From a virus (lineage: Duplodnaviria; Caudoviricetes): a DNA stretch of 61,640 nucleotides. Both the position numbers and the translations under genes were made by a program. Position 1 is the stretch's first letter; every line of letters begins with the position of its first letter. The stretch covers positions 1 through 61,640 of the IMG/VR virus record IMGVR_UViG_3300045747_000506. One strand, 5' to 3'. Under the pieces are notes generated by a model. The model was given only the letters and a program-made list of their open reading frames with translations. It ran no database searches and was not told the DNA's origin. Of this stretch, positions 1 to 50,486 are shown piece by piece.

Positions 1-226
1 AAAAGAATCCGCACATCCAATACCAGGAGTTATTCTAACCGCTTCTCCAGTAACAACATCAATACCATCAGTAGTATTTCTTATTTTGTGTTTTACTACT
101 ACTGTAGCAGACCCATTGTATCCAGCAGCTCTAGCTATTATTTTATAAGTTCCAGCACCTAATTGGAAATCAGTATTAGTTCCTCCTGTACCAGTAAAAG
201 CACTAGGATTTAAAACTATTCCTGTA
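1..226. repeat. Terminal direct repeat (assembly circularisation overlap), left copy
   Basis: 1-226 matches 61415-61640 except C99 vs T61513; lies inside a CDS. Confidence 0.95.
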
Positions 227-32834: not shown

Positions 32835-33679
32835 TTAACGGCCTCGTGAAATAAAATTCTATTACCAATAATTTCTGGGATAGCTGGTACTACAGAATTT
32901 CCAAGCTGTCTGATACGCTGAGCTCTAGCTCGGTCCAATCTTCTATGTAACCCATCATCCACTCTACAAACTGAGGATTCAACTTCCCACCGACTACGGA
33001 ATTTAGCGGTGGCTTCTGTCCACCACTCGGATTTTTCTTTCTCGGAGGTAAAGGTGGGCCAGAATCGAAAGTTGTGGGAGTTGGTAGCTGAAGTTTGTTC
33101 ATTCTCACTAGAGTTTCTAGACTCTCCCGAATCGGTCCCGTCCTGCCAGCTCCCCCCTCCCTGATTTGACCCGTACGGATTTGCAGTTGGGTAGGCAACA
33201 ATCCATATTCTCTCCCTGAGATGAGGGGCACCAACGGATCTTGCTGATATAATTTCCCACTCTGCATCGTACCCGATCTTCCAGAGATCTTGCAGAACTG
33301 TGACAAGTCCATTACTTCGCAAGTTTGCCACGTTTTCGATAATGACGTAACTTGGTAGTGTCGTTTCGATGATTCTTTTGTATTCAAACCACAATCCACT
33401 TCTAGTACCATCTGATATGCCCCTTTGCTGCCCTGCGACGGAAATATCCTGACAAGGAAATCCTCCCACTATAACGTCTATTTTAGAGTGTTCTCCAAGA
33501 CAAGTTAGATTTTTTATATCTTTAAATTTAGTAGTAACTGGCCAATGCTTATTTAAAACTCTCTGGCAGTGTTCATCGATCTCACAAAATGCTACTGTCT
33601 CAAACCCCCCAGTAGATTCAAGTCCTAGGGAAAAACCCCCTATTCCGCTAAATAAATCTAATACTTTTAATTTACGCAA
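32825..33679 (-). CDS. DNA (cytosine-5) methyltransferase, alpha-type chain (motifs I-VIII and X)
   Basis: DLFSGIGG, GGFPCQD, IENV, PHLRERIW, LGNSVVP; no motif IX in this frame. Confidence 0.95.
   Translation of the reverse strand: MRKLKVLDLFSGIGGFSLGLESTGGFETVAFCEIDEHCQRVLNKHWPVTTKFKDIKNLTCLGEHSKIDVIVGGFPCQDISVAGQQRGISDGTRSGLWFEYKRIIETTLPSYVIIENVANLRSNGLVTVLQDLWKIGYDAEWEIISARSVGAPHLRERIWIVAYPTANPYGSNQGGGSWQDGTDSGESRNSSENEQTSATNSHNFRFWPTFTSEKEKSEWWTEATAKFRSRWEVESSVCRVDDGLHRRLDRARAQRIRQLGNSVVPAIPEIIGNRILFHEAVKCL
32890..33411 (-). CDS. Nested +1-frame methyltransferase beta-type chain (TRD-like region plus motif IX)
   Basis: LLPT / LPTPTTFD and KLNPQFVEWMMGYIEDWT; AGGGG SD-like sequence upstream of ATG 33411; exact start uncertain. 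Confidence 0.75.
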   Translation of the reverse strand: MVLEVDCGLNTKESSKRHYQVTSLSKTWQTCEVMDLSQFCKISGRSGTMQSGKLYQQDPLVPLISGREYGLLPTQLQIRTGQIREGGAGRTGPIRESLETLVRMNKLQLPTPTTFDSGPPLPPRKKNPSGGQKPPLNSVVGGKLNPQFVEWMMGYIEDWTELELSVSDSLEIL

Positions 33680-33950
33680 ACAATTTCTTCTCTAACACTG
33701 AGGTTAAATGAAAAATATCTTTACAGTATCCATGCATGATAACTGCTCTAGGAGTTGGAGTGTGTCTTCTGCCGTGAACTTCAAATAATTTTATTCCCAA
33801 CTGTTTTTCAAATCTTGTAATAGTGGCACTTACTACAGGCTGGGTAGTACCTAATCTCTCTGCTGCTTCAGTCTGATTTCTAGAACTCATCACTACATAA
33901 AAGCAGTACAAATGATTTAAGTTTTCTATTCTTCTATATTTAAACATCAA
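33672..33950 (-). CDS. Stand-alone LysR-type winged-HTH protein
   Basis: NLNHL..F..V, AAERLGTTQPVVSATI..FEKQLGIKLF, PTPRA; no effector domain. Confidence 0.88.
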   Translation of the reverse strand: MMFKYRRIENLNHLYCFYVVMSSRNQTEAAERLGTTQPVVSATITRFEKQLGIKLFEVHGRRHTPTPRAVIMHGYCKDIFHLTSVLEKKLFA

Positions 33951-35986: not shown

Positions 35987-36037
35987 GCCTATATCCTTGG
36001 ATAGTGTTTCTTTAATAATTTACTCGCAGTTGTGAAC

Positions 36038-36066
36038 AATATAATTATCTAAAGATCTATTGTCAA
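36038..36066 (-). promoter_or_regulatory. sigma70-like promoter for the helicase gene
   Basis: TTGACA-17-TATATT on the minus strand. Confidence 0.65.
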
Positions 36067-36207
36067 TTGACGAAAAGGAATATAATATGTGTTAGTCATA
36101 GTCTGTGGTAATCCTTTGTGTATCTTAATGATGACCTCGCAGTTACCAAAAAGAATTCAGTTAGCATGACCACAGACTTGACTTCAAACCAACCAAAATC
36201 CATGACC

Positions 36208-36480
36208 CACTGCAACTGTAGTACTGTAACGGAAAATAAAACTAAAAGTTTTAAAAAGAAAGATATTTATTTTATAAGTTCTACAGTAAACAGCAGTGTT
36301 TTCAAGTACCTAATTTTATTCAGTCCACCTATTTGGGCCATAGCTTTATGCTATATGGGTATGCTTTTTTTCGTCTAAAAAGGCCTAAACACTGTCTACT
36401 GTAACGAAAATAAAACTTTTAAAAAATTGTTTTTAAAACAAAAAAATATTTTTTCTAAATTTCGTTACAGTATACAGTAC
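36208..36480. repeat. Putative replication origin: two inverted-repeat units around A/T-rich spacers
   Basis: TACTGTAACG(G)AAAATAAAACT at 36222 and 36397; inverted arms near 36279-36298 and TTCGTTACAGTA at 36461. Confidence 0.6.
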
Positions 36481-36516
36481 CGTAAGTAGTAATAATTACA
36501 TTGTAGATATTACCTA

Positions 36517-36545
36517 TTGAATAATGCTATGAATTATAGTATATT
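36517..36545 (+). promoter_or_regulatory. sigma70-like promoter
   Basis: TTGAAT-17-TATATT upstream of 36584. Confidence 0.55.
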
Positions 36546-36583
36546 GTTATAGAGTACTAAAAAAGCCCCACTAGGAGATAATT

Positions 36584-36943
36584 ATGAAATTTAGAACGCA
36601 TGAGAGACGGATTTCTGCTAATGCTGACCTAACTAAGTTTAGAGTTCAGTATAAAGTTGGAGGGAAAGCTAGAGCTAATATTCTATCTAGCATTGAAGAG
36701 GCCAGAGTATTAAGGGATAAGACTGACACTCCAGATACTAAGAAACAATTAAAAGCTGGTACAATGACTAATGACCCTAGAGGAGTAATGCCTTTAGAAG
36801 TGGCACTATCATCTTCTAATAAGAGAGAGGAAGTAGCTCCTAAGTCTGTAAACCTATCAGGATCTAAAGAGCCAATGAGTGAAGAGAAAAAGGCACTATT
36901 AGAGATGCACATGAACTTAATGAAAAAAGTATTTGGGATATAG
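36584..36943 (+). CDS. Putative DNA-binding protein (AP2/arm-binding-like N-terminus)
   Basis: KFRVQYKVGGK...SIEEARVLRD pattern; AGGAG RBS. Confidence 0.5.
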   Translation: MKFRTHERRISANADLTKFRVQYKVGGKARANILSSIEEARVLRDKTDTPDTKKQLKAGTMTNDPRGVMPLEVALSSSNKREEVAPKSVNLSGSKEPMSEEKKALLEMHMNLMKKVFGI

Positions 36944-36950
36944 GTAATAT

Positions 36951-37871
36951 ATGCAGAGGCTAACTCTAGATAAAATACTTAAAAGTACTGTTAAAAACGC
37001 TAGAGATCCTCTGTTTTATTTCACTAATTTAATTAAATATTCTAAGTTAAATATGGGAGGAGATTACTGGAGGTTAGATACTTCAGTTGCCTCCGAAATT
37101 ATGGCAAGGATAAATCCTGAGTCTGCCCTCTTTATAGATAAGTACTTAGGACAATCTGGATCTATAGAAAAGAAGATAATATTTCACGGAGTAGAATACC
37201 GAGAAGGCAATTTTGATAACTATGTTGTGTCTAAGCCACTGTTGGAAGTTCTAGGGAAAGTTAGAGTTGATATGCCTGTATCTCAAATCAAACTGGGAGT
37301 TAACTCCTATTTTGAGCTTGGAGGATACAAAGGATTTGAATTTGCCTTAATATCTACTTACATAAAACCAGCAGGTCTAACTCTAGGTGGGGTACAATTA
37401 AAAATTTCTGCTTATAACGATACTACGGGTAAGGTGGCCTATTGGGGAATAGACTTAGGGGAAGACACTCTTGAGAAGTGTTTGGCCAAAGTAAATGCTT
37501 TTTACGGGCAAGAATGGGACCTAGCTACTGTAGAGGCTCCAGATGACATATTCCACACTTTTGCTAACTTACTAATATACATTTCCAACCCTACAGACGA
37601 GTTCAAAAAAGAGTTTAACTCCTTCTCAAGCAACAATAAGAAATGTCAAAAGGAGAAACTTGAGTATACTCAAAAACCATTTATTAGAATTGGGTATGAT
37701 GCAACTTTCTTAAGACTAGTCACTGAAACAGAATTTGGAGTTAGAGGGCACTTTAGATGGCAGCCATTCGGTGTTGGTAGGGTACAAAGAAAGTTAATAT
37801 TTATAGACCCTTTCACTAAGACTCAAAAAAAGTTTATAGAAGTAGATAAAGATTATATACCAGTAGACTAA
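36951..37871 (+). CDS. Conserved phage hypothetical protein
   Basis: C-terminal VRGHFRWQPFG..RKLIFIDP motif recurrent in phage proteins of unknown function. Confidence 0.7.
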   Translation: MQRLTLDKILKSTVKNARDPLFYFTNLIKYSKLNMGGDYWRLDTSVASEIMARINPESALFIDKYLGQSGSIEKKIIFHGVEYREGNFDNYVVSKPLLEVLGKVRVDMPVSQIKLGVNSYFELGGYKGFEFALISTYIKPAGLTLGGVQLKISAYNDTTGKVAYWGIDLGEDTLEKCLAKVNAFYGQEWDLATVEAPDDIFHTFANLLIYISNPTDEFKKEFNSFSSNNKKCQKEKLEYTQKPFIRIGYDATFLRLVTETEFGVRGHFRWQPFGVGRVQRKLIFIDPFTKTQKKFIEVDKDYIPVD

Positions 37872-37892
37872 TATATAGCTTTATGCTATACT
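37864..37892 (+). promoter_or_regulatory. sigma70 promoter overlapped by a palindromic operator-like site
   Basis: TAGACT-17-TATACT with extended TG; ATAGCTTTATGCTATA at 37875-37890 is also present at 36340-36355. Confidence 0.55.
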
Positions 37893-38195
37893 TATATTGT
37901 GGCTTAACAAATTGGAGTTTTAAATGATTAAAAAGATTACTGAAATAATGGTTTCTATCAATGTTGCTCTAGGAATTTTCTTTGTAGTACTTGTAGCATT
38001 AAAGACTATTGGAACTATCTAGAACTATACGCAACTATTGCTAACTTTCGTTCAAGAAATTCAAACAATTAGCAACTATCTAAAGCAAAACCTGAGCAAA
38101 ATACAACCTAAACCCCCTGAAATTATTAGTAAAATACATAAAACCTAGTAATTACGGGGCTTTAGGACATCGAATTATAGCTATAAATAATGAAT

Positions 38196-38243
38196 TCCCC
38201 GACGGTGCTGGACCCCTACAAGTTTGTCTAGCTATCCCCCCGT
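38196..38243 (-). other. GC-rich cos-like site A (candidate genome end)
   Basis: GGGGGGATAGC...AGGGGTCCAGCACCGTCGGGG in a long AT-rich non-coding region, upstream of terS in minus orientation. Confidence 0.4.
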
Positions 38244-38941
38244 ATTCATTGAGGAATTTCTTCGTTTGATTTATTAATGCTACTAAGTCAGGGTAGGACT
38301 ACATAGTCATGTCTAATGAGCTCTAATAGCTTTTAAATATAAGTATTGGATATAAAATAGGTCGTTGAATTACAATGAGTTTAGTCACTCAAACAAAATA
38401 AAGTATAACAATATCAAGTAGTTATAGCACCTCCTCTCTAATGGCCCTTAAACGATTCGCTTTAAAAAGATAAGTAATTGATATTGAGTAAAAAATATAA
38501 CTACTAGATTGCTGATAGGCCGACGCTATTTAAATCAATCAATCAATCAATATAACTTTTTTCTTTAATGGGTAGTAGTTAACTAGATACATCTAACAAT
38601 GCATAGGTACTATTATCATCTAACTAAATTGATCATTATAAGGGGAAGTCGTTAAAATGATCATTATAGTAGTAACCATAATTAATAAGTATATAGTGAG
38701 ACTCTCCTGGCCATTGATCGAATAACGCCTATAAATATAGTCAAATAGTATGTATTAGCTTCTAATTTTCACCTTTAAGACTTGGAAGAGTGAAACTATT
38801 TCATTATCTAAGTATCTATTAACATAGTAAATAATAGAAATATATTAGAACAATATATAATTATCTAATCTATACTAAAAAGCTATGGTATTATCTCTAT
38901 AGTAAAGGAAATAAGGATTCTTTAATAAAGGAGATAAAAAA

Positions 38942-39169
38942 ATGAAACTAGAGAGATTAATTTATGAACTAAATTGCAAAAAGACATGTTTAGAAAAAGC
39001 CATTATAGAGCAAAAACAACACGCTATAGATCAGTTTACTAAGGAAGTTGAACTATATACTAGTGCGATAGCTAACTATAACAATACTTTAAGTGCTAAT
39101 GAAATTGAAATTGTTAAAAATACTATCAAGGCACTAACTAACCTACTTAATAAAGGAGAAAAAAAATGA
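38942..39169 (+). CDS. Early hypothetical protein
   Basis: Strong AAGGAG RBS; first gene of the plus-strand operon. Confidence 0.7.
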   Translation: MKLERLIYELNCKKTCLEKAIIEQKQHAIDQFTKEVELYTSAIANYNNTLSANEIEIVKNTIKALTNLLNKGEKK

Positions 39170-39475
39170 AACTTTATAAAATATGGTCAATGGAACTAAA
39201 TAGATTTACAGGCCATAACTTTAAAACAGAAATTGAGGCCTTAGAATTTTTGCATACTCTAGATAAACGAATTCAATACTTTATTATCGAAACAATTAAT
39301 TAATTAGGAGAAAAAAATGAAAAACGAGAGAGTAATTCACATTAGAGTTTTATCTTCAAAAAAAGAATTAAGAGAGGTTGATTTAGGATTCTTTTACATA
39401 AATTTAGCTATTATGAGTACTTTAGTTGCCTCAATTTTAACAATGCTTAAATAATTATTATTAAAGGAGATTTTT

Positions 39476-40417
39476 ATGGGTGATTCAAAAAAAGTTTTAG
39501 AGTTAATTGGTTCGGGCCTTGTACCTCACTTAGTAGGACCAAGGGGAGAGGGTAAGACTACTTATGTTAAAGATTTAGCTAAATTACTTAATAAAGAACT
39601 AACAATTTTAAATTTATCGGCCATTGAGGCAACCGACTTTTGCGGCCTTCCTTTTATAGAAAATAATCTAACAAAATATGCCCGACCTCAATTTCTAAAT
39701 AGTGATTTTCTATTTCTAGATGAGATTGACCGAGTGAGAGATAGTTCAGTAAAATCAAGTCTTTTATCTCTTTTAGTTGACCGTAAAATTCAAGGCCATG
39801 AATTAAAAGAAAATTGTATTATTATATCGGCCGGTAATGGCCAGGTAGAAGGCTATGACACCACTGATTTTGATATAGCCTTAGAAGATCGACTATTAAT
39901 TAAAGATTTTACTTACTCAATTTCTGAAAAGTTGGGCTATTTAAATGCTAAATATCCTCATAACACTTTTATTAAATTTTTAGAAATTAAACCTGAAATT
40001 TTAAGTGAATTTTCAGGCCGTAGAATTGAAGCTTTTTTAAAAGTAAATAATGTTCAATGTGAAATATTTTTTAACAAAGAAGTTGCTAGAATGTATAAGC
40101 ATTTTATAGAGGAAACAATGGTTACGTTAGATGATATTAAAAAGGGAGTTTACGACTTTAATATTTTATCGACTATTAGTAAATCAAGTTTAGTTATCGA
40201 CATAGTAAACGACTTTTACCGACTTGATACTAAAGACGCAAAAAATATAAATAAATTTATTAATCTTTTACGGGCCGAAGAAAAATCTAGTTATTTTACT
40301 AAACTTAAAAAATTATGTTTAGAAAATCCTGAAAATTTTACTGAAAAATCTAATGAGTTAAATGAGGCCGGTCTATTTAAAGGCCAAAAAGATTTTTTAA
40401 CCGAACTAACTAAGTAG
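39476..40417 (+). CDS. MoxR-like AAA+ ATPase
   Basis: GPRGEGKT, D..GLP, LFLDEIDR, SAGN, ALEDR. Confidence 0.9.
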   Translation: MGDSKKVLELIGSGLVPHLVGPRGEGKTTYVKDLAKLLNKELTILNLSAIEATDFCGLPFIENNLTKYARPQFLNSDFLFLDEIDRVRDSSVKSSLLSLLVDRKIQGHELKENCIIISAGNGQVEGYDTTDFDIALEDRLLIKDFTYSISEKLGYLNAKYPHNTFIKFLEIKPEILSEFSGRRIEAFLKVNNVQCEIFFNKEVARMYKHFIEETMVTLDDIKKGVYDFNILSTISKSSLVIDIVNDFYRLDTKDAKNINKFINLLRAEEKSSYFTKLKKLCLENPENFTEKSNELNEAGLFKGQKDFLTELTK

Positions 40418-40429
40418 GAGATTAATTTT

Positions 40430-41182
40430 ATGAGTAAGAATAAAATAATGACTAATATTGATAGCATGTTTAATCATTTTGGCCATAGCTTATTTATAGA
40501 CTATAAAAATAGATACGTTTTAGCAGAATTACAAAGCTATGGAAATAATCAACTTAATAATTTAAAGAGTAACTTAAATATAATTAAAAAAATTAAAGGC
40601 TTTAAAATTGATATATTTATTTCCGAAGATCACTTGAAATATTATATCTCATCCCCTACTTATGGCCGCGATACTATTGAATTCTTATTAAATGATGTAA
40701 TTTCTACTTATACGCTTTTTACGGGAAAATCAGATTTTGAAAATAGTATTCATACTATTAATTTTTCTAAATTAAAAAAAGTTACTAAAGACGAATTAAA
40801 CGTATTAAGTGAGATTAATAAAGAGAAAAAGAAAATTAATAAAATGTTAAAGACTTATTTAATCACGGGCCATAAAGCCAATATTAAATTAAAGCATTTA
40901 GATTTAAATAAGGCCCCTAAAATTATCATTTCAGCGTCGGATTGTTTTTTAGCTATAAAAAAAGTTGATCTAAAAGATTTAAAGAAATTTTACACTATTA
41001 ATAACTATCATAATACTAAAGAACTTAGAATGGATCAATTCGTCTATACTAAAGAGGCCGTTAAAAGTATCACTTTAGGCGATATTGAAAAGCTAAAAGA
41101 GTTAGGATTTACTTTCGATAATAAATGTACAATTTACAGTAAATTAGTTGCGACTAAGGTTTTAACTAATTTAGGAGATTAA
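40430..41182 (+). CDS. Early hypothetical protein
   Basis: 250-aa ORF with AGGAG RBS. Confidence 0.75.
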   Translation: MSKNKIMTNIDSMFNHFGHSLFIDYKNRYVLAELQSYGNNQLNNLKSNLNIIKKIKGFKIDIFISEDHLKYYISSPTYGRDTIEFLLNDVISTYTLFTGKSDFENSIHTINFSKLKKVTKDELNVLSEINKEKKKINKMLKTYLITGHKANIKLKHLDLNKAPKIIISASDCFLAIKKVDLKDLKKFYTINNYHNTKELRMDQFVYTKEAVKSITLGDIEKLKELGFTFDNKCTIYSKLVATKVLTNLGD

Positions 41183-41185
41183 TTT

Positions 41186-42340
41186 ATGAAAATATATAAA
41201 GCATTAGTAGAAATAGAAAAGAATTGTCCAGAAATATTTTATTTAATTAGGCATTGTAAAATTGAGGTAACTGATAAAATATCGTCGGCCAGTATTGGTA
41301 AAACAAAATCAGGATTTATAATGAAGATAAATGATCAATGGGTAAATAATTTTGATCAATTCAACCTATGTGCAATTATTGAACATGAGTTACTTCATTT
41401 AGTTTTATCTCATTGCTCTGAAATTTCTAGTTTTAGCAATCCTAAAATGGCCAATGTAGCACAAGATTTAATCATAAATGACATTGGCAACTATTTTCAA
41501 AATGAATCTAAATTAAATAGTGAACTACAGGCCGGTTGTTTTTTACATAAATTTAATAAGCAGTATAAAACTGAATTTAATTCTAATCAAAATACATCAC
41601 TAGAAATTTATAATTTTCTTTTAAAACAATCTGGAGAAAAACAAGAAAAAAGTAAATCATTCGATGAAGGATTTAAAGATGATAGCTCTAATGAGGATAG
41701 TGAAGGCCGGGCCGAAGAAAATGCAGAAATTGATTTAGAGGAAATTTTAAGTCAATCCGAACTATCAGAAATTGTTAAAAAATACTCTAAAGATTCTAAA
41801 GATCTTAAAAAGTTTTTTAGTGAAATTGAAAAAAGAAATAAAGATAAAAAGATTAAAAAAGCTATTGAGCAGTTTTTTAACTCTCATAAAGCTGAATTTA
41901 AAAAATCAATGAAGAAAAAAAATAAAAGATTTTCTTTTTTGCCTTATGGCCGTGTAAAAGATTCTAAACAAAAAATTTTAATAGCTTTAGACGTTAGTGG
42001 AAGTATGCTATGCCCTGACGATTTAGAAAAATTAAAAATGTCAGTAAATAGTGCAACTAGTAATGGCTTTCAGGTTGATTTAATTTTTGGAGATACTAAA
42101 AAAATTGGAGATTTTAAAGACATAAAGAATAATTTTAATTTTGAAGAAAATATTAAAGGTGGGGGCGGTACTGATTTAAAATTTATTTTTGATGAAAAAC
42201 TAAAAGACTACGATTGTACTGTAATTGTAACCGATGGGGAATTTTATCAGGGAGATATCCCGACTAAATTAAAAAGAGATTTACTATTTTTAAATACAAC
42301 ACTAAAAGAAATTTCAGGATTTAAAAACTTATTTATTTAA
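41186..42340 (+). CDS. Metallopeptidase-VWA protein (DUF2201-like), MoxR partner
   Basis: HELLH zincin motif, N.AQD..IN, MIDAS DVSGS, GGGTD, VTDG. Confidence 0.9.
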   Translation: MKIYKALVEIEKNCPEIFYLIRHCKIEVTDKISSASIGKTKSGFIMKINDQWVNNFDQFNLCAIIEHELLHLVLSHCSEISSFSNPKMANVAQDLIINDIGNYFQNESKLNSELQAGCFLHKFNKQYKTEFNSNQNTSLEIYNFLLKQSGEKQEKSKSFDEGFKDDSSNEDSEGRAEENAEIDLEEILSQSELSEIVKKYSKDSKDLKKFFSEIEKRNKDKKIKKAIEQFFNSHKAEFKKSMKKKNKRFSFLPYGRVKDSKQKILIALDVSGSMLCPDDLEKLKMSVNSATSNGFQVDLIFGDTKKIGDFKDIKNNFNFEENIKGGGGTDLKFIFDEKLKDYDCTVIVTDGEFYQGDIPTKLKRDLLFLNTTLKEISGFKNLFI

Positions 42341-42354
42341 AAAGGAGATATTTT

Positions 42355-43053
42355 ATGTGGGCCTCAAGTTGTAATTTAACTAAAAGAAGAGACGGTCATT
42401 TTACGAATTCGACTAAAACATGCGAGATTTTCGAAAATTGTGCTATGTCATACGCTGAAAAAATAGCGATAATTGATCATGAAAAACAGTATATTTTATT
42501 TAACGATCATATATTTAGTGTAACTACTAATCATCATCAAACTGCTACTTATTTTCATTTAGTAAAAAAATACCCTAATTATAAAAAATATTCATTTGAT
42601 AGTTATTCAATAAATGATTTTAATTTTAAAGACGCTAGGACATTAGGAAATGGGCTAATTTTTTCAGATTCACTAATTAGATTTATCTCTGAACAATACC
42701 CTACTAAAGATAATGAAGATTTTTTACATGAGTTACAATGGAAAAACATTTATAGAAGTGTAGAAAATGCAATTTATAAATCTAATAGAGATAAAGAAAA
42801 AAGATTAAATAAAAAGATTGAAAAATTAGATTTTAAAAGTATAGCCGATCTAGAAAAAGCCCTTGGAAAGAATACCTATGTAAAAATTAGAGGATATTAT
42901 TTAGAAAATGATGGCAATAAAAAGAACTTATTTTCTAAATATGTTTTAGATTACATTGATAGGTTTAACATAGTTGATAGATATAAACCTGATTTTATAA
43001 ATGTATTAAAAACTAATATTACTATTAATTCACTAGGCACATTAGGAGATTAA
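42355..43053 (+). CDS. Early hypothetical protein
   Basis: SY..IA..D...FSVTTNHHQ motif seen in phage early proteins; RBS. Confidence 0.7.
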   Translation: MWASSCNLTKRRDGHFTNSTKTCEIFENCAMSYAEKIAIIDHEKQYILFNDHIFSVTTNHHQTATYFHLVKKYPNYKKYSFDSYSINDFNFKDARTLGNGLIFSDSLIRFISEQYPTKDNEDFLHELQWKNIYRSVENAIYKSNRDKEKRLNKKIEKLDFKSIADLEKALGKNTYVKIRGYYLENDGNKKNLFSKYVLDYIDRFNIVDRYKPDFINVLKTNITINSLGTLGD

Positions 43054-43057
43054 TAAA

Positions 43058-43267
43058 ATGAAAATGTTAAAATTTAGTGAAATATTCCCTGAAAAATGTA
43101 TTAAAGAATTGTTAAAAGTTAAAGATAAAAAGTGTAAAAATTTTACTCCGATAATTGAGAAATATTTAACTGAAATAAATTCTAAAACTAATCAGGAAAA
43201 TGATTTAACTTATTTAGGTTACATGGCCGAGTACTTTTTAAAATTAGGAGGCGAAAATGGAAAATGA
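43058..43267 (+). CDS. Early hypothetical protein
   Basis: RBS; INSKTNQEND..YLGYM. Confidence 0.65.
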   Translation: MKMLKFSEIFPEKCIKELLKVKDKKCKNFTPIIEKYLTEINSKTNQENDLTYLGYMAEYFLKLGGENGK

Positions 43268-43454
43268 AAATAAATATAAAAAATCCAGAATTGGTAGGCC
43301 TGAAGAAATGGCCACTATATCAGCCTATGTACCGAAAAGTTTAGTAAAATTTATTAGAGATAATGAAATAAATTTTTCTTTTTTTGTGAGAGATAAATTA
43401 GATACTTTAATAAAAGAACATGTAGAGAAAATGAAACAATTTAATAAAGAGTGA
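43257..43454 (+). CDS. Ribbon-helix-helix DNA-binding protein
   Basis: GRP..MATISAYVP...NFSFFVRDKL. Confidence 0.6.
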   Translation: MENENKYKKSRIGRPEEMATISAYVPKSLVKFIRDNEINFSFFVRDKLDTLIKEHVEKMKQFNKE

Positions 43455-43458
43455 TTTT

Positions 43459-43719
43459 ATGATTTTAGAAATAAAAGAAAAAATTAAATCATTAGATAAA
43501 AAAGAAAAATTCATTCCTATAGGGAATTTTAAATTTCCTGTTAGGCCTATTAAGGCCCTTTTAAAATTGTTAAATTCTAAAGAAAAAATAAAATGTAATA
43601 TTTTACACGAAGGCCAGATATTAAAAATAGTATGGGGAGATAATAGAGGGTATATAAATTTTAAATGCGAGTATTATAACTATGAACATACTGATTTATT
43701 TAAAACATTAGGAGATTAA
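43459..43719 (+). CDS. Early hypothetical protein
   Basis: ORF in operon. Confidence 0.65.
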   Translation: MILEIKEKIKSLDKKEKFIPIGNFKFPVRPIKALLKLLNSKEKIKCNILHEGQILKIVWGDNRGYINFKCEYYNYEHTDLFKTLGD

Positions 43720-43722
43720 AAA

Positions 43723-43983
43723 ATGAATGATCAATTGAAAAACACTTGTCTTAAATTAGGCCTTGAAAAAAGACTAGATAATAACATTAAAAGGGTAGAA
43801 TTTAAATTTAACGAGTTTCAAAATAGCGAAAATGGAGTTATGGCCAGTGATTTAAATTTTTTAGAAGGTTTTATTAAAGCTATAAACGAGGAAAATGAAG
43901 AAATTAAAAAAGAGCTAGCCGTTATTAGTACCTTTAATAAATTAGGCGATAGTAATTTTACCATTGACGATATACCCTTTTAA
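43723..43983 (+). CDS. Early hypothetical protein with DDIPF C-terminus
   Basis: RBS; ends TIDDIPF like bacterial SSB tails. Confidence 0.7.
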   Translation: MNDQLKNTCLKLGLEKRLDNNIKRVEFKFNEFQNSENGVMASDLNFLEGFIKAINEENEEIKKELAVISTFNKLGDSNFTIDDIPF

Positions 43984-44009
43984 TCTTTAAATCTATCAAT
44001 TGAACGATT

Positions 44010-44034
44010 AGGGCCTCTAAATGGGGCCTTTTTT
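44010..44034 (+). terminator. Rho-independent terminator of the early operon
   Basis: AGGGCCTC-TAAAT-GGGGCCTT plus T-tract. Confidence 0.8.
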
Positions 44035-44602
44035 ATACTTTGTAATTAGTTCACCCTAATAAAATAAATCAAAAAACTATTTCTATTATTTTTCTAACAA
44101 TTTTATTATTTAAGTAGGTGTCTATAAATATCTATTTTTTAAAGAGATTTTTTGGCCTATTTAAATGCCTTTAAATCACTTAAAAAAGAAAATAGTTCAT
44201 TAGAACGATTATTTTTATAAAGAGTATTAAAGGAGGTTACAATCGATTTTGAAATTTTTAGATTTTTTGGCTTCTCAATATGCCTTTAAATCAGTTTTTA
44301 TTTCTACCCTAGCCTATAGGCCATGAATAATTATTCGATTTAAAGTCAAAAATTTCTCTTAAGAAACGTACTTTTTTACCGTCAATTTTACCTCTGGCCC
44401 GTCAAAGTTCAAATGAAATCCATTTTCTGGCCAGGAAAATTTTTTACAAAATTTCCAGATTTTTTTATTTTAGAAAACTCTCCAAAAATTTAAGCTTTTT
44501 GGAGATAGGTGCATAAAAATTAGCAACAATTTCTACAGAAATATTTGAAATAATTTCTAGGAATTTTGCATCAATTTGTGGGTAAAATATTTTAAGAATT
44601 GT

Positions 44603-44718
44603 GGTGGAATATTGGTGGATTATAGGTGGAATATTGGTGGAAAATGTAGGTAAGTTATGGTGGGAATATGGAAGAAATGTAGCGGAAACTTGGTGGAATA
44701 TTGGCGGTAAAGTTGCGG
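44603..44718 (+). repeat. 11-bp-period GGTGG(AATATT) tandem array
   Basis: GGTGG/GGCGG or degenerate copies at 44603, 44614, 44625, 44636, 44659, 44681, 44692, 44703, 44714. Confidence 0.9.
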
Positions 44719-44729
44719 TAAGTTATACT

Positions 44730-44786
44730 AACTTCTAGTATATAATTGCACCAACTTCTAGTTAATAGTTGCACTAGCTTCTAGTA
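44730..44786 (+). repeat. 23-bp-period direct repeat CTTCTAGT..TTGCAC
   Basis: CTTCTAGT at 44732, 44755, 44778. Confidence 0.85.
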
Positions 44787-44834
44787 AAAAACGGTAGATA
44801 TTAGGATTATATAGTTAGACTATTAGAAAAATAT

Positions 44835-44888
44835 GGCAGGTGGGGGACACTTTTCTAGCGTGACCCTCCTTTTTTACCCTACCCCCCT
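44835..44888 (-). other. GC-rich cos-like site B
   Basis: GGGGGGTAGGGTAAAAAAGGAGGGTCACGC on the minus strand in non-coding DNA. Confidence 0.35.
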
Positions 44889-45035
44889 ATTTAAGAGTAT
44901 ACAGAATTATTGCTAATGAAATTATGGCTGAAATTATCATTTATTTCATTTTCCTATAGACTGCAATTAAAAAACCAACGCTAATTAATTGGGCAATTAT
45001 TGACAACAATTTAAGAATTAGTGCTATGTCTTTAT

Positions 45036-45284
45036 TCATTTATTTTCCCCATATTTTTCAAGCCAAGCATCTCTTCTACATTGCTCATCTTCGTCGGGCG
45101 AGCATAGATTTTCAACAAATCCAATCGCCTCCTTGATCGCCTTATCTTTTTCAACCAACGCATTTAATATTTTATTCATCTCGCTAACCTCAACAATAAT
45201 TTGCTTTTCGTCTAATGACATAAATTTAAAATTCATTTTCCATCCGCTCTTCCTTTTTCTTTTATCCTTAAACACACCGAACAA
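45036..45284 (-). CDS. Hypothetical protein (true start probably MNFKF)
   Basis: Small gene in a coupled accessory cluster. Confidence 0.55.
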   Translation of the reverse strand: MFGVFKDKRKRKSGWKMNFKFMSLDEKQIIVEVSEMNKILNALVEKDKAIKEAIGFVENLCSPDEDEQCRRDAWLEKYGENK

Positions 45285-45433
45285 GTTATTTCATCGGATA
45301 TATTTACCATGTTCGCAATCTTGTTGCAAAAAGTTCTACCATTAGATTTTTCACCATGAAATAAGCCTACTCCTTTTGTTTTATAATACCAATTTTTCCA
45401 ACGCAATCTATCGGCTTCTGAGTTTTTATTCAT
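45233..45433 (-). CDS. Small Cys/His hypothetical protein
   Basis: H..C...ITCSVC pattern. Confidence 0.55.
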   Translation of the reverse strand: MNKNSEADRLRWKNWYYKTKGVGLFHGEKSNGRTFCNKIANMVNISDEITCSVCLRIKEKGRADGK

Positions 45434-45452
45434 TCACACTCTCACTCATTTT

Positions 45453-45695
45453 TTACTCTGCTATGTAATTAAATAACCTACAATCAATAAGTGTCTCAAT
45501 TAAACTTTGCTTATGAACAACTTTTATTTTTGTGCAAGTTTGCTCATTCTCTGGGAAGCAATCTTTAAGCATTTGAAGAAAACAGTTACACTTAAAAATA
45601 TCGTAGTCTAGCTCGTTTTCAATTGGCATCTTAAACAGTGAATAGTCACGAAAGAAACAATTCAAAAACAAGTTGTACAATATTTCGTCTTTCAT
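45453..45695 (-). CDS. Hypothetical protein
   Basis: ATGA overlap with upstream gene. Confidence 0.55.
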   Translation of the reverse strand: MKDEILYNLFLNCFFRDYSLFKMPIENELDYDIFKCNCFLQMLKDCFPENEQTCTKIKVVHKQSLIETLIDCRLFNYIAE

Positions 45696-45961
45696 TTACT
45701 TATCTCCAGATCATACTTTGACAATCTCTCATTCAACGCTGTTTCAAACTTTTTCTGTGCGTTTTCATCCCACTCATAAACTTCAGTTATTTTGCAAGTA
45801 AAATTCCCATCAAGGTCTGGTTCATTAAAAGGATCACTAAAAACTAAATCCCTTAACAATTCTTTTGCTTCTTCAATTGAATCTGCTTCAACTGAATACT
45901 CGCCTTCGTATGTGTATATAAACCCAACTTGATATTTCATTTTAAAAACCCTTATACTCAA
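45692..45961 (-). CDS. Hypothetical protein
   Basis: VEADSIEEAKE motif common in small phage proteins. Confidence 0.65.
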   Translation of the reverse strand: MSIRVFKMKYQVGFIYTYEGEYSVEADSIEEAKELLRDLVFSDPFNEPDLDGNFTCKITEVYEWDENAQKKFETALNERLSKYDLEISK

Positions 45962-46160
45962 ATATAAATCTTTGACTTAAAAAATTATCAACTTCCCTCT
46001 GAGAGCTAAGACCACATATAGATAATCCTTTAATTATTCCATTCTTTTTTGTCTCAATTAATAAGTCAAAAGGATGGCAATTGCATGGGTTTTGAGTAAC
46101 TGAAAAATTAAAAAAACATCTGTCCATAAAAAATCTTTCTTTCATGTTATTCATCTCCAA
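45942..46160 (-). CDS. Hypothetical protein
   Basis: ORF in coupled cluster. Confidence 0.5.
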   Translation of the reverse strand: MEMNNMKERFFMDRCFFNFSVTQNPCNCHPFDLLIETKKNGIIKGLSICGLSSQREVDNFLSQRFIFEYKGF

Positions 46161-46414
46161 ATATCTTTTGTTTTAATTGATTTTTTCTATCGTTCGTCCA
46201 CGTTAAAGCACTCGCAAATTCCCATGCCTTATCAAACTCGCTCTCCGTTATCTCAATCTTTTTTTCAGGTACTTCGAATTCGATAATAATTTTCACATCA
46301 GAAACTTGCTTTCTTTTATGGCTAGGTTAATATTGCAAGTATTATATTCACGCATGCTTAAGGCATAGTTTTCAAAACTATACCTATTTACCCAAAATTC
46401 TTTTCTAATTGTTT

Positions 46415-46750
46415 TCACTTTAAAACCTCCGCGATTTGTTCAATATCAAAAGGCTTGCTTAGTATTCCATCGTATAAGCTTCTATCAAACCTTCCTGTAT
46501 CACCTGAAAATCGGTAGCACTTAATCCCAATAGGTTTTAACACACTTGCAAGTAAATCTCCTTTACCCTCTAGTCCATCTATAAATGCGTGAGTAACCTT
46601 ATTAGTCTTGGCCAATGCTTCGGGAACATCGCTTGCAAGCTGAATTGATATGCAAACATTAATATTTAAGTTCATAATTAAATCTTGCATAATATCTAAA
46701 ATCTCTGGCTCGTCGTCCACGATTAATAAACTTATTTTTACTTCACTCAT
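46415..46750 (-). CDS. Stand-alone response-regulator receiver (CheY-like)
   Basis: LLIVDDEPEI, AFID (phospho-acceptor Asp), FSG, LSKPF. Confidence 0.85.
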   Translation of the reverse strand: MSEVKISLLIVDDEPEILDIMQDLIMNLNINVCISIQLASDVPEALAKTNKVTHAFIDGLEGKGDLLASVLKPIGIKCYRFSGDTGRFDRSLYDGILSKPFDIEQIAEVLK

Positions 46751-46956
46751 TTAAATATCGCCTCTATGATTAATTCAATCATGTGTCTGTGATCCTTTAT
46801 TGGCATCAAGGTTATTTTATGTAGGTCTTTAGCAAGCTTACGTCTATAGTTAATTTCACCGTCAACATATCCACTAGCGTAACATTGAATGGAGTTTGCT
46901 CTACCATTAGATTCAAAAGACTTTTGTATTTCTTTAAATTTTTCTTCATCGCTCAT
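46747..46956 (-). CDS. Hypothetical protein
   Basis: Start/stop overlap with receiver gene. Confidence 0.55.
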   Translation of the reverse strand: MSDEEKFKEIQKSFESNGRANSIQCYASGYVDGEINYRRKLAKDLHKITLMPIKDHRHMIELIIEAIFK

Positions 46957-47035
46957 TTAAACGCTCGATAAATATTATAAGAATTAAATGTTATAAAAAT
47001 AAATATAAAAATATTCTGAGCTAATTCTATCTTAC

Positions 47036-47245
47036 TCATTTAACACTCCTAATTTTTGGCTCTGGCTTATTTAGTATTTCACTTTCCACATTACACAATA
47101 GTGACCGTATCATCTCCACTCCATTATATAACCCTCTTTGATACTCACAACTATGTGCTGTACTTTTTAGAGACTTTTTTAACGACTCAATTGTCTTTAT
47201 TGTTTCTGTTAGTTTTCTAGTATGGCTACTCACCCTTACCTCCAA
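47036..47245 (-). CDS. Hypothetical protein
   Basis: EYQRGLYNGVE motif. Confidence 0.55.
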   Translation of the reverse strand: MEVRVSSHTRKLTETIKTIESLKKSLKSTAHSCEYQRGLYNGVEMIRSLLCNVESEILNKPEPKIRSVK

Positions 47246-47320
47246 ATATGTAGGACAAAAACGCTACAAGTATTACTAAAGCAACTAAGGATTGTTCTAA
47301 CTCATTTATGTATTCAGTTG

Positions 47321-47548
47321 TCATTGGGCCACACCTATTACCCCCAATATTAAGAAAACTACAGCAGCAGAGAAAACGATAAATGAAATTACTACCCATA
47401 ATAGGATTTCATACCCAGACATTTCTCCCCGTAACATTTTTTTAGGTAGCTCTAATTTTTCATAAGCTGGATATGACCTAGCAGCGATATCCAACATAAA
47501 AGTTTGCGACCCAACTGATTTTTTAGTTAGTTTATTTTCTGATTTCAT
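47321..47548 (-). CDS. Small membrane protein
   Basis: C-terminal hydrophobic helix. Confidence 0.55.
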   Translation of the reverse strand: MKSENKLTKKSVGSQTFMLDIAARSYPAYEKLELPKKMLRGEMSGYEILLWVVISFIVFSAAVVFLILGVIGVAQ

Positions 47549-47554
47549 AGTTCC

Positions 47555-47773
47555 TCAAAAGTTAAATAAATCGATATGCATGTTTGCTTTTTCAAAAATC
47601 ATTTTGAAATTATTTTTACGTTCCATAAATTCTTTTACTGTAAGTGTGGCAGGGCATTTACGACATCGTTTGATTAGCTTGTCTTTATTGCCTTCGAAGA
47701 TAGTCCAATGGGACCAAGAATGTTTTATACAATAAGGTTTTCCAATTAATTTTCTAGTTGCTACGGCATCCAC
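47555..47773 (-). CDS. Small zinc-finger-like protein
   Basis: C..H.W...RCRKC. Confidence 0.5.
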   Translation of the reverse strand: MDAVATRKLIGKPYCIKHSWSHWTIFEGNKDKLIKRCRKCPATLTVKEFMERKNNFKMIFEKANMHIDLFNF

Positions 47774-47797
47774 TATTAAATCCTAAAAAACCTACAT

Positions 47798-47979
47798 TGC
47801 ACATGAACTGCACATGAGATTTTAAGCGATTTTAGGAGTTAAATAGTTGGAATTATAAGAGTATAGATAGAAAAGGGGCCTCCTGCAAAGCCTCCATCTC
47901 TTCCGTAACATGCTGTAATTATTGGATATTTTTACAGCTTTTTGATCCTTGCACATGAGTTGCACATAGGATTGCACAT
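47798..47979. mobile_element. attP-like site: integrase arm-type repeats flanking a core
   Basis: TGCACAT x2 (47798, 47809) and x3 (47950, 47961, 47973), directly after the integrase stop; GC-rich core near 47875-47896 ending GCCTCCA. Confidence 0.7.
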
Positions 47980-49338
47980 CTACTCCCGAACTAAATGTTC
48001 ACTTTCCTTCCAATTTGCTCCTAAATTCTGTTTATATTTTTTAGCATAGTGATCCTTCATAGTTTTCATATCCCCACCATAGAGCTCAACAAGAATTGAA
48101 TCGGCAACACCATTTTGAAACAGTGCCGACAATGTAGAATTTCTCGTACCTCTGTGTAGGTCAACAAACTTAGAAAGCTTCTTCTGCATAATTAATTTTT
48201 TAGCACTCTTTGACCATTCTTGATAAAGAGCATTTTTACCTAATATCTCTCCACTCTTTCCTTTGAATACTAATTCTTTATTATTCAAACTTGGAGTAAG
48301 TCCCATTAACATTTCATAAAGGCCTGGGAAAAAGTCGTACTTTAATGAACTATCTGGACTACTTTTTAGCCCACCTAATTCTTCAGAATCAACTGCCCCC
48401 TTCCCATCGGAAATATGTCTGCTAAAAGTTATTTCTCTTTTCTTGAAATTTATATCACCCCACCTTAAGCAAATAACCTCAGACTTTCTTCGTGTGTAGT
48501 TTGCCAAGATTGTAATAGCAATTCGTATTTCTTTTTTATCGATATTGTTTATGACTAAGTTTCTTTCTTCTAAGGTATAGAAGTCAGCCGCCTTAAATTT
48601 TTTGGATTTAATTTTCTTAGGAAATTCTGGAGTATATTTTGTAAACCCTTCTATTTCGGCCCAGCTAAATATAGGTCCTAACTCTTTTATAATTTCTGTT
48701 TTGATAGAATCTGAAAGATTAACTCTTTTAGAAAATCTATTAACATATTTGTAGCTTAGTAATTGTTTACTTAAAACTTGGTAGCTTAGTTCTGAAAAAG
48801 AATATTCCCCAAAAATTGGGATCATATAAAGTCTGACTACTCTTTCTTTTTTAGCATACCCTCCTGGAGTTAGCTTATCAGAAAAAGAATTACCGACCCT
48901 ATCTTTTTGATATTCTAGATATTGGTACATGCAGTTCTTAATAAGGAGGGAATTTCTCTGAGACTTATTCCCAATTGTTCTTGGGTCGAAATTGTTTCCA
49001 TCTTTAGCGAATTTATCTTTAATAAATTCACAGAAACTATCTGCTCTAGATGCAGTATCTAATCTTTTATCGGTGTCATCAGTAGTTTTTTGAATTAGCT
49101 GTATAGAGTTAGTACCTATAATAGGTGTATTAAAACTAACCCTAAAAAGATTGGGAGTACTACCACATGAAATACATCTAGGTATTTCATTAATATACTC
49201 CCTACTTTTTTTCTTCTTAAATTTCATTCCATTACAATCAACACACTTGGCCCTAGTGGCAGGACTAATATAAGGCTTCATAGCTTTCCCCCTTCGCAAT
49301 TTTCTTTTTTGCTCGGGTGATATTAAATCTACGTCCAT
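47980..49338 (-). CDS. int: Tyrosine recombinase (integrase) with N-terminal CxxC zinc finger
   Basis: TRRKSEVICLRWGDI, LKS, LHRGTR, KDHY catalytic Tyr; second His box degenerate. Confidence 0.88.
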   Translation of the reverse strand: MDVDLISPEQKRKLRRGKAMKPYISPATRAKCVDCNGMKFKKKKSREYINEIPRCISCGSTPNLFRVSFNTPIIGTNSIQLIQKTTDDTDKRLDTASRADSFCEFIKDKFAKDGNNFDPRTIGNKSQRNSLLIKNCMYQYLEYQKDRVGNSFSDKLTPGGYAKKERVVRLYMIPIFGEYSFSELSYQVLSKQLLSYKYVNRFSKRVNLSDSIKTEIIKELGPIFSWAEIEGFTKYTPEFPKKIKSKKFKAADFYTLEERNLVINNIDKKEIRIAITILANYTRRKSEVICLRWGDINFKKREITFSRHISDGKGAVDSEELGGLKSSPDSSLKYDFFPGLYEMLMGLTPSLNNKELVFKGKSGEILGKNALYQEWSKSAKKLIMQKKLSKFVDLHRGTRNSTLSALFQNGVADSILVELYGGDMKTMKDHYAKKYKQNLGANWKESEHLVRE

Positions 49339-49413
49339 TATATTAAAATCCTATAATTGCTGACTCAAGTGGTTATCAATAAGTTACTTATTCAAATATT
49401 TCTTTTTAATATG

Positions 49414-49662
49414 CTACAGTGTTCCAATATATGTAACTATGGTGTCACAAACAAGGGCAGTATCTTTTACTTCTCTCTTCTTTGTTGTTTGATTGTAGGT
49501 AGCAACCTTTCCTTCTGTTTTTCTATTATCAAGTAGTATCAACTCTCCAGAGAAAACATCTAAGTAGACACCTTCTTTTCCGTCAAAAAATAATTTAGAA
49601 GCAAATTTTTTCATCTTCATTTCTGGTAGCCCTTTATTAATACTGTTTACAACTATATTCAT
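49414..49662 (-). CDS. Hypothetical protein
   Basis: GAGGAG RBS; divergent from repressor. Confidence 0.6.
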   Translation of the reverse strand: MNIVVNSINKGLPEMKMKKFASKLFFDGKEGVYLDVFSGELILLDNRKTEGKVATYNQTTKKREVKDTALVCDTIVTYIGTL

Positions 49663-50006
49663 ATCTAATACTCCTCTAAGTGTATAGTGCTATTTTGTGT
49701 AAAAACCTTACTGGTATATAATTTATATAGATTAGCAGATAGATAGACATAACTCCTCCTCCGAATAGAAATTATGTATATAATTAAAGTGTATAAATAT
49801 ACTTTAAAGCTATAAATTATTTCTGAGGAATATGACTCAACCTAAAGGCAATATCAATATCAATTTTAGTAAAATATACGTATTTCCATAATTTACACGT
49901 ACTTATAATACCCCAATAAGGGTATATTTCGGTACGCCGTAATTTTTGACTTATTTTTAAAGCTATGAAATTGCGTAAACTTATAGTTTTGTGATATGTT
50001 TAATGT

Positions 50007-50486
50007 ATGCCAATAGTAGCCAATTTTTTAGAAAACTTTACAGCCGCCATGAAGAAGGCTGGAAATCTTACTTATCAAGATTTGGAGGATATTTCTGGTG
50101 TGCCAAAACGCAGAATAACTACATGGGCATACCGTAAAACTGTTCCAAATCCTGACGACTTAGAAAAAATATCAACTGCCTTAAAAGTAGAGCCACACTA
50201 TTTCTTTATGAAACCTGGAACTCAACTAAAAATAGAATATGTTTCTTGTGCTTTTGATAAGTTTATTGATGAGCTGGCAGAGAAAGTTTTATCTCCTTCC
50301 GATAAAGCATCTTACATAGAAAAAGGCGGGGCCAAAGAGTTTGTCAGAGTGTTGAGAGAAAACTATGAAACAGATTCTCTAGTAATTTCTGAATGGTATT
50401 TACAATTAAATAAAGAACTTTCAAATTATGTAACTTTAGATTTAAAAAAGAAAGTTATAGAAAAGTTTGATTTAAAAAACAGGTAA
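50007..50486 (+). CDS. XRE/CI-like HTH repressor
   Basis: LTYQDLEDISGVPKRRITTW...PNPDDLEKISTALKV..YFF. Confidence 0.85.
   Translation: MPIVANFLENFTAAMKKAGNLTYQDLEDISGVPKRRITTWAYRKTVPNPDDLEKISTALKVEPHYFFMKPGTQLKIEYVSCAFDKFIDELAEKVLSPSDKASYIEKGGAKEFVRVLRENYETDSLVISEWYLQLNKELSNYVTLDLKKKVIEKFDLKNR

Follow-up and report, generated by a model that had tools for sequence, protein, structure and literature searches.

In Escherichia coli, the Dcm/Vsr footprint of very-short-patch (VSP) repair, reportedly described by Bhagwat and McClelland in 1992, consists of an excess of CCWGG and a deficit of CTWGG/CTAG. A comparable footprint, built on the word GGCC, is described here for a temperate phage, IMG/VR record IMGVR_UViG_3300045747_000506. 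The virus record is complete, with a length of 61,640 bp and 34% GC, and the term window refers to this whole stretch of DNA. The GGCC sites of the window peak in an AT-rich island at 38440-44435. The genome-wide GGCC/GGCT footprint is that of VSP repair without the canonical nuclease as its agent. It is probably a repair or mutation signature of the host lineage, which is a known kind of process in a new setting. The peak in the island is a genuine and conserved anomaly without an established cause.

Three further phenomena were compared with the window. According to the sections of PMC4390886 drawn on here, the model of Elhai (2015) for the highly iterated palindrome HIP1 of cyanobacteria assumes that orphan methyltransferases and methyl-dependent mismatch repair ratchet one-letter deviants of the word, mostly those deviating at the end positions, into full sites. 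In M.EcoHK31I, as presented in PMC2836561, the beta chain is read from a different frame inside the gene of the alpha chain; the enzyme targets YGGCCR, with methylation of the inner cytosine. The avoidance of short palindromes by phages under restriction is paralleled in the window by the avoidance of CCGG and GCGC; GGCC runs the opposite way and its excess is therefore not a matter of restriction avoidance. The two main features are as follows.

1-61640, no strand: GGCC excess and GGCT/AGCC deficit, 156 GGCC sites, determined by tetramer and codon statistics
38440-44435, no strand: AT-rich island (GC 26%) of high GGCC density, with 41 sites (6.8 per kb), 9 of which are intergenic

The 156 GGCC sites of the window compare with 51 expected from base composition and 72 from a maximal-order Markov model. 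GGCC was the most over-represented of the 256 tetramers (z 12.2, Markov), and GGCT/AGCC and CCGG tied as the most under-represented ones (z -8.1). An initial reading of the sequence, referred to as the earlier note, had reported about 40 GGCC in approximately 6 kb, and 41 were counted at 38440-44435. The rarity of CCGG, GCGC and CGCG in this region was likewise reproduced (4, 0 and 1 occurrences, respectively), as was the density of about 3-4 per kb given for the TipJ-like gene (5524-9765, 15 GGCC, 3.5 per kb). The varied flanks had been taken to mean that the core of the word is GGCC, which agrees with the proportion of YGGCCR, 46 of the 156 window sites and 13 of the 41 island sites. In the earlier note a VSP-type repair bias was considered, and the lack of a GGTC/GACC depletion was held against it. 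These two words are indeed neutral in the structural genes (49 vs 48.5 and 40 vs 44.1). A repair bias of this type is still the best reading of the window-wide excess, with the difference that the footprint is GGCT/AGCC, at the outer position, and not GGTC/GACC.

The earlier note had also named the loss of the enrichment after codon-pair correction as an outcome that would refute the finding. The excess stayed in synonymous shuffles (n=300) in which the protein sequence and the per-gene codon usage were fixed. The observed and expected GGCC counts were 70 vs 26.8 in the structural genes (z 10.6), 32 vs 12.4 in the island genes (z 8.3) and 35 vs 12.9 in the remaining genes (z 8.0). The effect is clearly visible in the Ala codons of the window. 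After G, GCC accounted for 36% of them vs 10% elsewhere and GCT for 13% vs 46%, and no shift was detected for GCA and GCG. The drain hits GCT and not GCA, which indicates a directional T-to-C change at the last position of GGCT, since a selection equilibrium would drain both codons. On the opposite strand this corresponds to an A-to-G change in the first letter of AGCC. In the core genes, the more frequent use of GGC before C fits simple dilution, with GGA and GGT dropping by like factors.

A portal search of viral contigs yielded three relatives of the phage, designated G001, G002 and G003. The complete G001, with direct terminal repeats, shows synteny to the window at 45-81% protein identity, but it is without the 36.9-50.9 kb part of the window, in which the island and the integrase are located. 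In the window, G001, G003 and the phage-like contig L014 alike, GGCC headed the tetramer ranking and GGCT/AGCC closed it, and the Ala-codon shift after G was the same in G001 and G003 as in the window. The 23 aligned core orthologues contained 59 GGCC in the window and 66 in G001, of which 14 were column-shared. This turnover of sites is what a continuing bias would produce. In G001 no tyrosine integrase was detected, and as its signature is of equal strength, lysogeny via this integrase is not needed for the bias. The GenBank phage collection held no close relatives, with no DNA match to the island and capsid matches of at most 35% identity, and a TerL scan of the genome contigs gave no match.

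An alignment-based scan of the genome contigs resulted in one relative, located on a 10.4-kb contig of a metagenome-assembled genome (MAG), G004, which is titled Bacteriovoracaceae bacterium. The portal and capsid proteins of this phage-like contig are 57% and 46% identical to those of the window, respectively, and the contig carries the signature. The same signature was detected in the 85.6 kb of non-phage contigs of G004, with GGCC at 264 vs 151 (z 11.6), GGCT at 97 vs 227 (z -11.7), and GGCA, GGCG, GGTC and GGAC neutral. The GTDB family of this MAG (phylum Bdellovibrionota, 237 genomes) was then taken as the host family, and 20 further genomes of it were sampled over approximately 20 kb each, five of the samples being shorter (4-12 kb). 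GGCC ranked first in 14 of the 20, GGCT/AGCC ranked last in 15, and both marks were present in 13. The codon-level effect was found in 17 of the 20 genomes; it was missing from G005 and G022 and ambiguous in G010 (64% GC). In contrast, neither mark was found in any of 20 control genomes from the same phylum outside the family, and the signature was likewise missing from all 34 unrelated viral or metagenome contigs examined, each 10 kb or longer.

The longest host sequence, G025 (420 kb, 33% GC), gave 1486 GGCC vs 649 (z 43) and 220 GGCT vs 800 (z -28). GGCA/TGCC was also lower (z -9.7) and GGTC/GACC was neutral. The NNCC/NNCT ratio reached 6.7 in the GG context and was 0.18 in the AG context, compared with 0.41-0.65 in the 14 others. 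GGCC was enriched with each of the four bases on either flank, which identifies GGCC as the core. The phage signature is thus that of the family of the Bacteriovoracaceae-titled MAG, and this family is the most probable host lineage of the phage. A capsid homologue was found in 2 of the 237 family genomes, namely a distant prophage gene and the MAG contig. The integrase gene of the window is 70% identical at the nucleotide level over 197 bp to the family genome G117. When the DNA of 36000-50100 was compared with the 237 family genomes, this integrase match and AT-rich noise alone were obtained, with no match resembling an attachment site (att).

The signature resembles the Dcm/Vsr footprint in that a methylatable word is in excess and the word with T for C is specifically deficient, genome-wide and independently of coding. 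For GGCT/AGCC the z values were -8.1 in the window, -11.7 in G004 and -27.9 in G025, and in the window and G004 the other one-letter neighbours of GGCC showed no bias or a much smaller one. It differs in the word, in the outer position of the deficient neighbour, in the near-absence of Vsr, in the orphan nature of the methyltransferase and in the lineage, a family of Bdellovibrionota. With HIP1, as far as the cited sections describe it, the signature shares a palindrome far above expectation, a lineage-wide orphan methyltransferase, deviants at the end positions and no need of a dedicated Vsr. A family-wide GGCC excess, a shared orphan methyltransferase and end-biased deviants, as in the ratchet model, were all found here, as a correlation at the family level only. 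The differences are the word length (4 bp vs 8 bp), the other host phylum and the phages being affected as well, and the HIP1 model itself, with its hypothetical repair system, is unproven. Within the literature searches made, on GGCC in Halobacteriovorax, Bacteriovorax, Bacteriovoracaceae and Bdellovibrio and on GGCC over-representation or VSP repair, no account of the signature was found.

If the assignment is true, the combination of raised GGCC and lowered GGCT/AGCC marks one predatory bacterial family and its phages, which would allow culture-free phage-host assignment. To our knowledge, very few phages have been described for this host family. A VSP footprint with Vsr nearly absent and an orphan C5-methyltransferase universal would make the family tractable for finding a new T:G or methyl-directed repair and usable for testing the HIP1 ratchet model.

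Candidate agents of the bias were sought in the host genomes. An orthologue of an orphan C5-methyltransferase of about 380 residues was present in all 21 family genomes and in none of 20 outgroup genomes. The orthologues are 44-66% identical over their full length, and that of G025, where the gene is cut by the contig end, is 53% identical over residues 47-370. The target-recognition region is as conserved as the catalytic half. The neighbours of the gene are housekeeping genes, and no restriction enzyme was recognised alongside it in the six loci scanned. The structure 8YF3, which in the part of PMC12783734 drawn on is a GC-specific carboxymethyltransferase, was considered and rejected as a guide to the specificity, as the match was confined to the motif IX-X part when the C-terminal half was searched alone. 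Two neighbouring genes were also rejected due to their poor tracking of the signature: a Ppx/GppA-like gene downstream, overlapping the 3' end of the methyltransferase gene and adjacent in 4 of 30 loci, and an upstream open reading frame (ORF) of 206-282 residues, degenerate ABC-ATPase-like and without a Pfam family, adjacent in 9 of 30 loci. Vsr and DUF559 proteins are too rare in the family to be the repair agent, and no Vsr was found among the scanned window proteins. From these data we infer that the orphan C5-methyltransferase of the family and a T:G repair activity are the agents of the bias. The samples G005:C1 and G022:C1 are natural negative cases in which the missing repair factor can be sought.

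The island stands apart from this genome-wide effect. Its larger genes, which were assigned like those of the rest of the window by Pfam and PHROG profile searches, form a cassette, and small ORFs are encoded as well.

39476-40417, plus strand: MoxR-like AAA ATPase (Pfam AAA_5/AAA, phrog_1297), 10 of 13 synonymous opportunities used as GGCC
40430-41182, plus strand: protein of 250 residues without a family match, 5 of 5 opportunities used as GGCC
41186-42340, plus strand: metallopeptidase-like (HExxH) and VWA-like protein of the DUF2201 type (phrog_1314 at 1.7e-34), 6 of 6 opportunities used as GGCC
42355-43053, plus strand: protein of 232 residues without a family match, the last larger gene of the cassette, 28% identical to its neighbour in contig L148

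The Pfam matches of the VWA-like protein to DUF2201_N and DUF2201 were below the cut-off, and its homologues carry PF13203. The 41 GGCC sites of the island compare with 1.6 expected from composition, or with 24.6 from the maximal-order Markov model, a value inflated by the GGCC sites themselves. GGCC contains 31.5% of the GC dinucleotides of the island vs 6.1% in the rest of the window (Fisher P 1.9e-9 against GGC[AG]/[CT]GCC). Ala after G was encoded by GCC in 16 of 18 cases and Gly before C by GGC in 14 of 18, and GGA before C was used once in 18 cases vs 25 of 51 elsewhere. These levels exceed those of the host. In 139 windows of 6 kb, G025 had a mean of 21 GGCC (3.5 per kb) and a maximum of 37, and the highest GC-dinucleotide fraction in GGCC was 0.212 vs 0.315 in the island. 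Saturation in the host genes concerns phase 2, with 65% GCC and 2% GCT for Ala after G, and hardly extends to phase 0, with 20% GGC for Gly before C.

A homologous cassette was identified on the metagenome contig L148, with the ATPase 57.5% and the VWA protein 47.7% identical to those of the window, adjoining replication genes that are 54-58% identical to the window's. In L148, 41 GGCC were located in the 5.2-kb cassette part vs 13 in the other 6.5 kb, and the cassette reached a similar saturation (Ala after G 16/20, Gly before C 17/20). The backbone of L148 shows a weak effect at most: after G, GCT was used in 3 of 24 cases vs 43 of 78 otherwise, and GCC in 8 of 24 vs 21 of 78. In the L148 cassette GGCT+AGCC is in excess (46, observed/expected 3.5) and GGTC+GACC is not (8, observed/expected 0.6), which indicates that the outer position is again the mobile one. 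A third cassette, on L151 (about 35% identical), had 39 GGCC in 7.9 kb at 30% GC, and more distant homologues in other AT-rich phage contigs had 0-2 GGCC per kb. An AT-rich stretch of G003 was not enriched, so low GC alone is insufficient. No periodicity, clustering, helical phasing or extended motif was found in the island sites, whose gaps fit an exponential distribution (Kolmogorov-Smirnov P 0.85), and the spacing in the island, L148 and L151 cassettes was random, with no periodicity and no longer motif. PADLOC gave no convincing defence-system match for the cassette.

Taken together, the data are probably best explained by two layers: a GGCT-to-GGCC bias of the host lineage acting genome-wide, and a surplus in the island that may stem from selection or from a past in a more biased genome. 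In the first layer, the bias of the family would turn GGCT/AGCC into GGCC and guard GGCC from decay to these words, presumably through a VSP-like correction of T:G to C:G that is tied to cytosine methylation. The phage DNA would acquire the bias of the host because it replicates and, being temperate, resides in host cells. In the second layer, the MoxR-like ATPase/VWA-like cassette exceeds the host bias in both codon phases, as does a homologous cassette in another phage. The likeliest cause in the island is selection for GGCC density or a history in a more biased genome, the two of which are not separated by the data; a locally intensified biased repair, e.g. through frequent heteroduplex formation in a mobile cassette, is a further possible reading. 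The density of one accessory cassette above the host level points to something not yet understood.

Several observations weigh against the two-layer explanation. The target-recognition region of the host methyltransferase gave no match to solved structures, and G005 and G022 carry the methyltransferase with an equally conserved target-recognition region, yet do not have the signature. Canonical Vsr (PF03852) was found in just 2 of 61 family genomes and 1 of 41 genomes of the phylum sample, and DUF559 in 2 of 21 and 3 of 41, respectively. On a classical reading as VSP repair, a footprint placed in this way would require the outer cytosine to be methylated, which speaks against a simple story. 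Apart from the signature, the host assignment draws on three weaker links, namely one MAG contig, one distant prophage capsid gene and one integrase match, and the binning of the MAG contig may itself have used tetranucleotide content. The bacterial sampling was confined to the phylum of the host, and most family genomes were sampled over approximately 20 kb or less. With respect to the island, its 78% GGC in Gly before C vs 8-50% across the host samples, and its density above host levels, mean that the first layer does not explain the peak.

In a more specific version of the two-layer explanation, a Vsr-independent, methylation-linked ratchet made up of the family's orphan methyltransferase and a repair factor writes GGCC, and the cassette is selected for GGCC saturation. 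This version is possible but clearly the less probable one. If it were true, the cassette would be an exceptionally densely methylated stretch, e.g. for switching expression or protection by the methylation state.

The first alternative is that the GGCC sites are selected in the phage as methylation marks, decoys or protein-loading sites, the island being the concentrated form. The saturation of the island in both codon phases and the replacement of GGA before C are in favour of selection, as a single outer T-to-C bias is not directly enough to produce them. The saturation also recurs in the L148 cassette at 48-58% protein identity in a GGCC-sparse backbone, 7 of the 10 ATPase sites and 11 of the 16 sites of the ATPase and VWA genes together are column-shared with L148, and the density exceeds that of all 139 host windows. 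However, with both cassettes saturated to approximately 80-90%, amino-acid conservation is expected to bring shared columns with it, and the spacing within the island is random, without helical phasing or an extended motif. At a selection equilibrium, GCA should be depleted like GCT, and it is not. The decoy, self-mimicry or protein-loading system that the earlier note put forward does not hold as a general cause, because the host chromosomes carry the same signature genome-wide and only 14 of the 59 core sites are column-conserved in G001. Selection as the source of the whole pattern is therefore unlikely.

The second alternative assigns the methylation to the phage's own C5-methyltransferase, which would methylate GGCC sites and, with host T:G repair, drive the phage excess. 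The gene is located between TerS/LysR-type helix-turn-helix (HTH) and TerL and has the following two frames.

32825-33679, minus strand: C5 cytosine methyltransferase, main frame, 284 residues (PF00145 at 5.8e-50, phrog_363)
32890-33411, minus strand: ORF in the other frame, wholly inside the methyltransferase gene, 173 codons, PTPT...RKKNPSGGQK...LNPQFVEWMMGY..DWT

The alignment of the main frame to M.HhaI extends over residues 4-163 and 251-271, corresponding to motifs I-VIII and motif X, respectively. Like the main frame, which is also conserved, the inner frame is open and conserved in G001 and G003 (26 invariant columns for the inner frame) and in the unrelated GenBank marine podophage KT997847, whose methyltransferase gene is annotated as two pieces. 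By tblastn, a segment of the inner ORF matched at the annotated KT997847 methyltransferase locus with 54.5% identity over 33 residues, again in an overlapping frame. The inner ORF had no Pfam match, and its hhalign probability against the canonical host methyltransferases was 0.2%. Its segment LNPQFVEWMMGY..DWT presumably resembles motif IX. Judged from the sequence, the dual coding could correspond to two subunits or to programmed frameshifting, both of which are possible.

The EcoHK31I-type label given to this enzyme in the earlier note fits the two-frame layout, while membership in that type is not established. As in M.EcoHK31I, one polypeptide has motif X as well as motifs I-VIII, and a second one lies wholly inside the gene in another frame. 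The comparison is one of description and not of sequence, based on the consulted part of PMC2836561. Unlike there, the inner ORF of the window also spans the region after motif VIII and contains PTPT repeats. The target YGGCCR of M.EcoHK31I, together with the shared layout, would suit a role of the phage enzyme in the excess. Such a role would also agree with the presence of its homologues in the window, G001 and G003, the three larger relatives that were examined, and with the signature in G001, where no tyrosine integrase was found. The enriched word is nevertheless not restricted to YGGCCR (46/156), and the footprint is at the outer cytosine, whereas M.EcoHK31I methylates the inner one (PMC2836561, same part). 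Moreover, the host chromosomes are stronger in the signature with a different methyltransferase that aligns to the phage enzyme over the catalytic half only. In KT997847 (32% GC), this two-frame enzyme type occurs without an excess of GGCC (30 vs 22.8, rank 49 of 256), so the enzyme type alone does not yield the signature. The phage enzyme is thus a very unlikely driver of the excess.

The third alternative is that the island is a recent import from a far more GGCC-biased genome or mobile element and has no function of its own. It is accessory, being absent from G001, G002 and G003, and both its GC (26% vs 34%) and its codon usage set it apart from the remaining phage genome. The GGCC density varies by module elsewhere in the window, and the excess of GGCT+AGCC but not GGTC+GACC in L148 is as expected for decaying sites. 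Against this, no donor was found. Single-protein scans of the viral contigs with the ATPase and the VWA protein gave no match, an alignment scan gave relatives of 21-31% identity only, the VWA protein had no match in the 237 family genomes, and no sampled host reached the values of the island. Three cassettes that are 35-58% identical and all GGCC-dense need continued pressure and not inheritance, which leaves a mere import with little probability. The last alternative, which attributes the excess to amino-acid, codon or codon-pair usage, has next to none: most sites do lie in phases 2 and 0 (77 and 41, i.e. 118 of 156 with Ala GCC and Gly GGC, besides 19 in phase 1 and 19 between genes), but it is refuted by the synonymous shuffles (z 8-10.6), by the preference for GCC following G and not following A or C, by the island's intergenic DNA, which matches the genes in density (9 sites in 1028 bp), and by low-GC phage contigs of other sources without an excess.

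Two regions of the window are poor in GGCC, as the near-absence reported for 1-3.8 kb and 45.0-47.3 kb had suggested.

1-3800, minus strand: GGCC-poor distal part of the tail-fibre gene of 1834 residues, 1 site vs 7.9 expected
45000-47300, minus strand: small ORFs in a block poor in GGCC, with 1 site where 4.8 are expected (P 0.05)

The expectation of 7.9 for bases 1-3800 refers to the non-island density (Poisson P 0.003), and 4 of 28 opportunities were used there. In the tail-fibre gene (1-5502, minus strand), the first 318 residues alone match G001, and the GC content at third codon positions is 0.16 in the distal part, which looks like a swapped receptor-binding module from a signature-free source. 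Both regions fit recent imports, and the GGCC density by module may trace long-term resident vs recently imported phage modules. In the host G025, the genes at L122:7791-11558 (1/12 and 0/20) and L122:14959-17064 (0/3 and 0/7) leave their GGCC opportunities almost unused, and these large genes may be recent acquisitions.

In the window, CCGG (5 vs 46-51) and GCGC (7 vs 24.5) are avoided and CGCG is not (15 vs 13). The relative G003 avoids neither CCGG (35 vs 34) nor GCGC (28 vs 29), and the same applies to the host MAG G004 (73 vs 75.5 and 100 vs 113, respectively). The avoidance looks like a strain-level restriction pressure of the HpaII/HhaI kind. A separate observation concerns AGCT, which is in moderate excess (336 vs 298 in the window; z 4.6 in G001, 5.2 in G004 and 12 in G025). 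Of the RGCY words, the two palindromic ones are thus raised and the non-palindromic pair is lowered in the window, G001, G004 and G025.

The remaining gene content is that of a lambda-like siphophage, with portal, HK97-type capsid, ClpP-like protease, TerL, TerS and tape measure genes, and with DUF1833, NlpC/P60 and a TipJ-like protein of 1413 residues at the tail tip. The replication module consists of a family A polymerase, an SNF2 helicase and a PDDEXK protein. No tRNA genes were found in the window. The phage was considered temperate because it encodes an HTH repressor-like gene and the following integrase.

47980-49338, minus strand: tyrosine integrase (PF00589, phrog_1)

An ORF of 92 residues with a LysR-type HTH is positioned at 33672-33950 (minus strand) between TerS and the methyltransferase, which is an unusual location for such a regulator. 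In the island, GGCC pairs 10-13 bp apart (43544-43562 and 44012-44035), as read by eye, can form short hairpins. The pair at 44012-44035 lies where the island operon ends, precedes a T run and appears by eye to be terminator-like.

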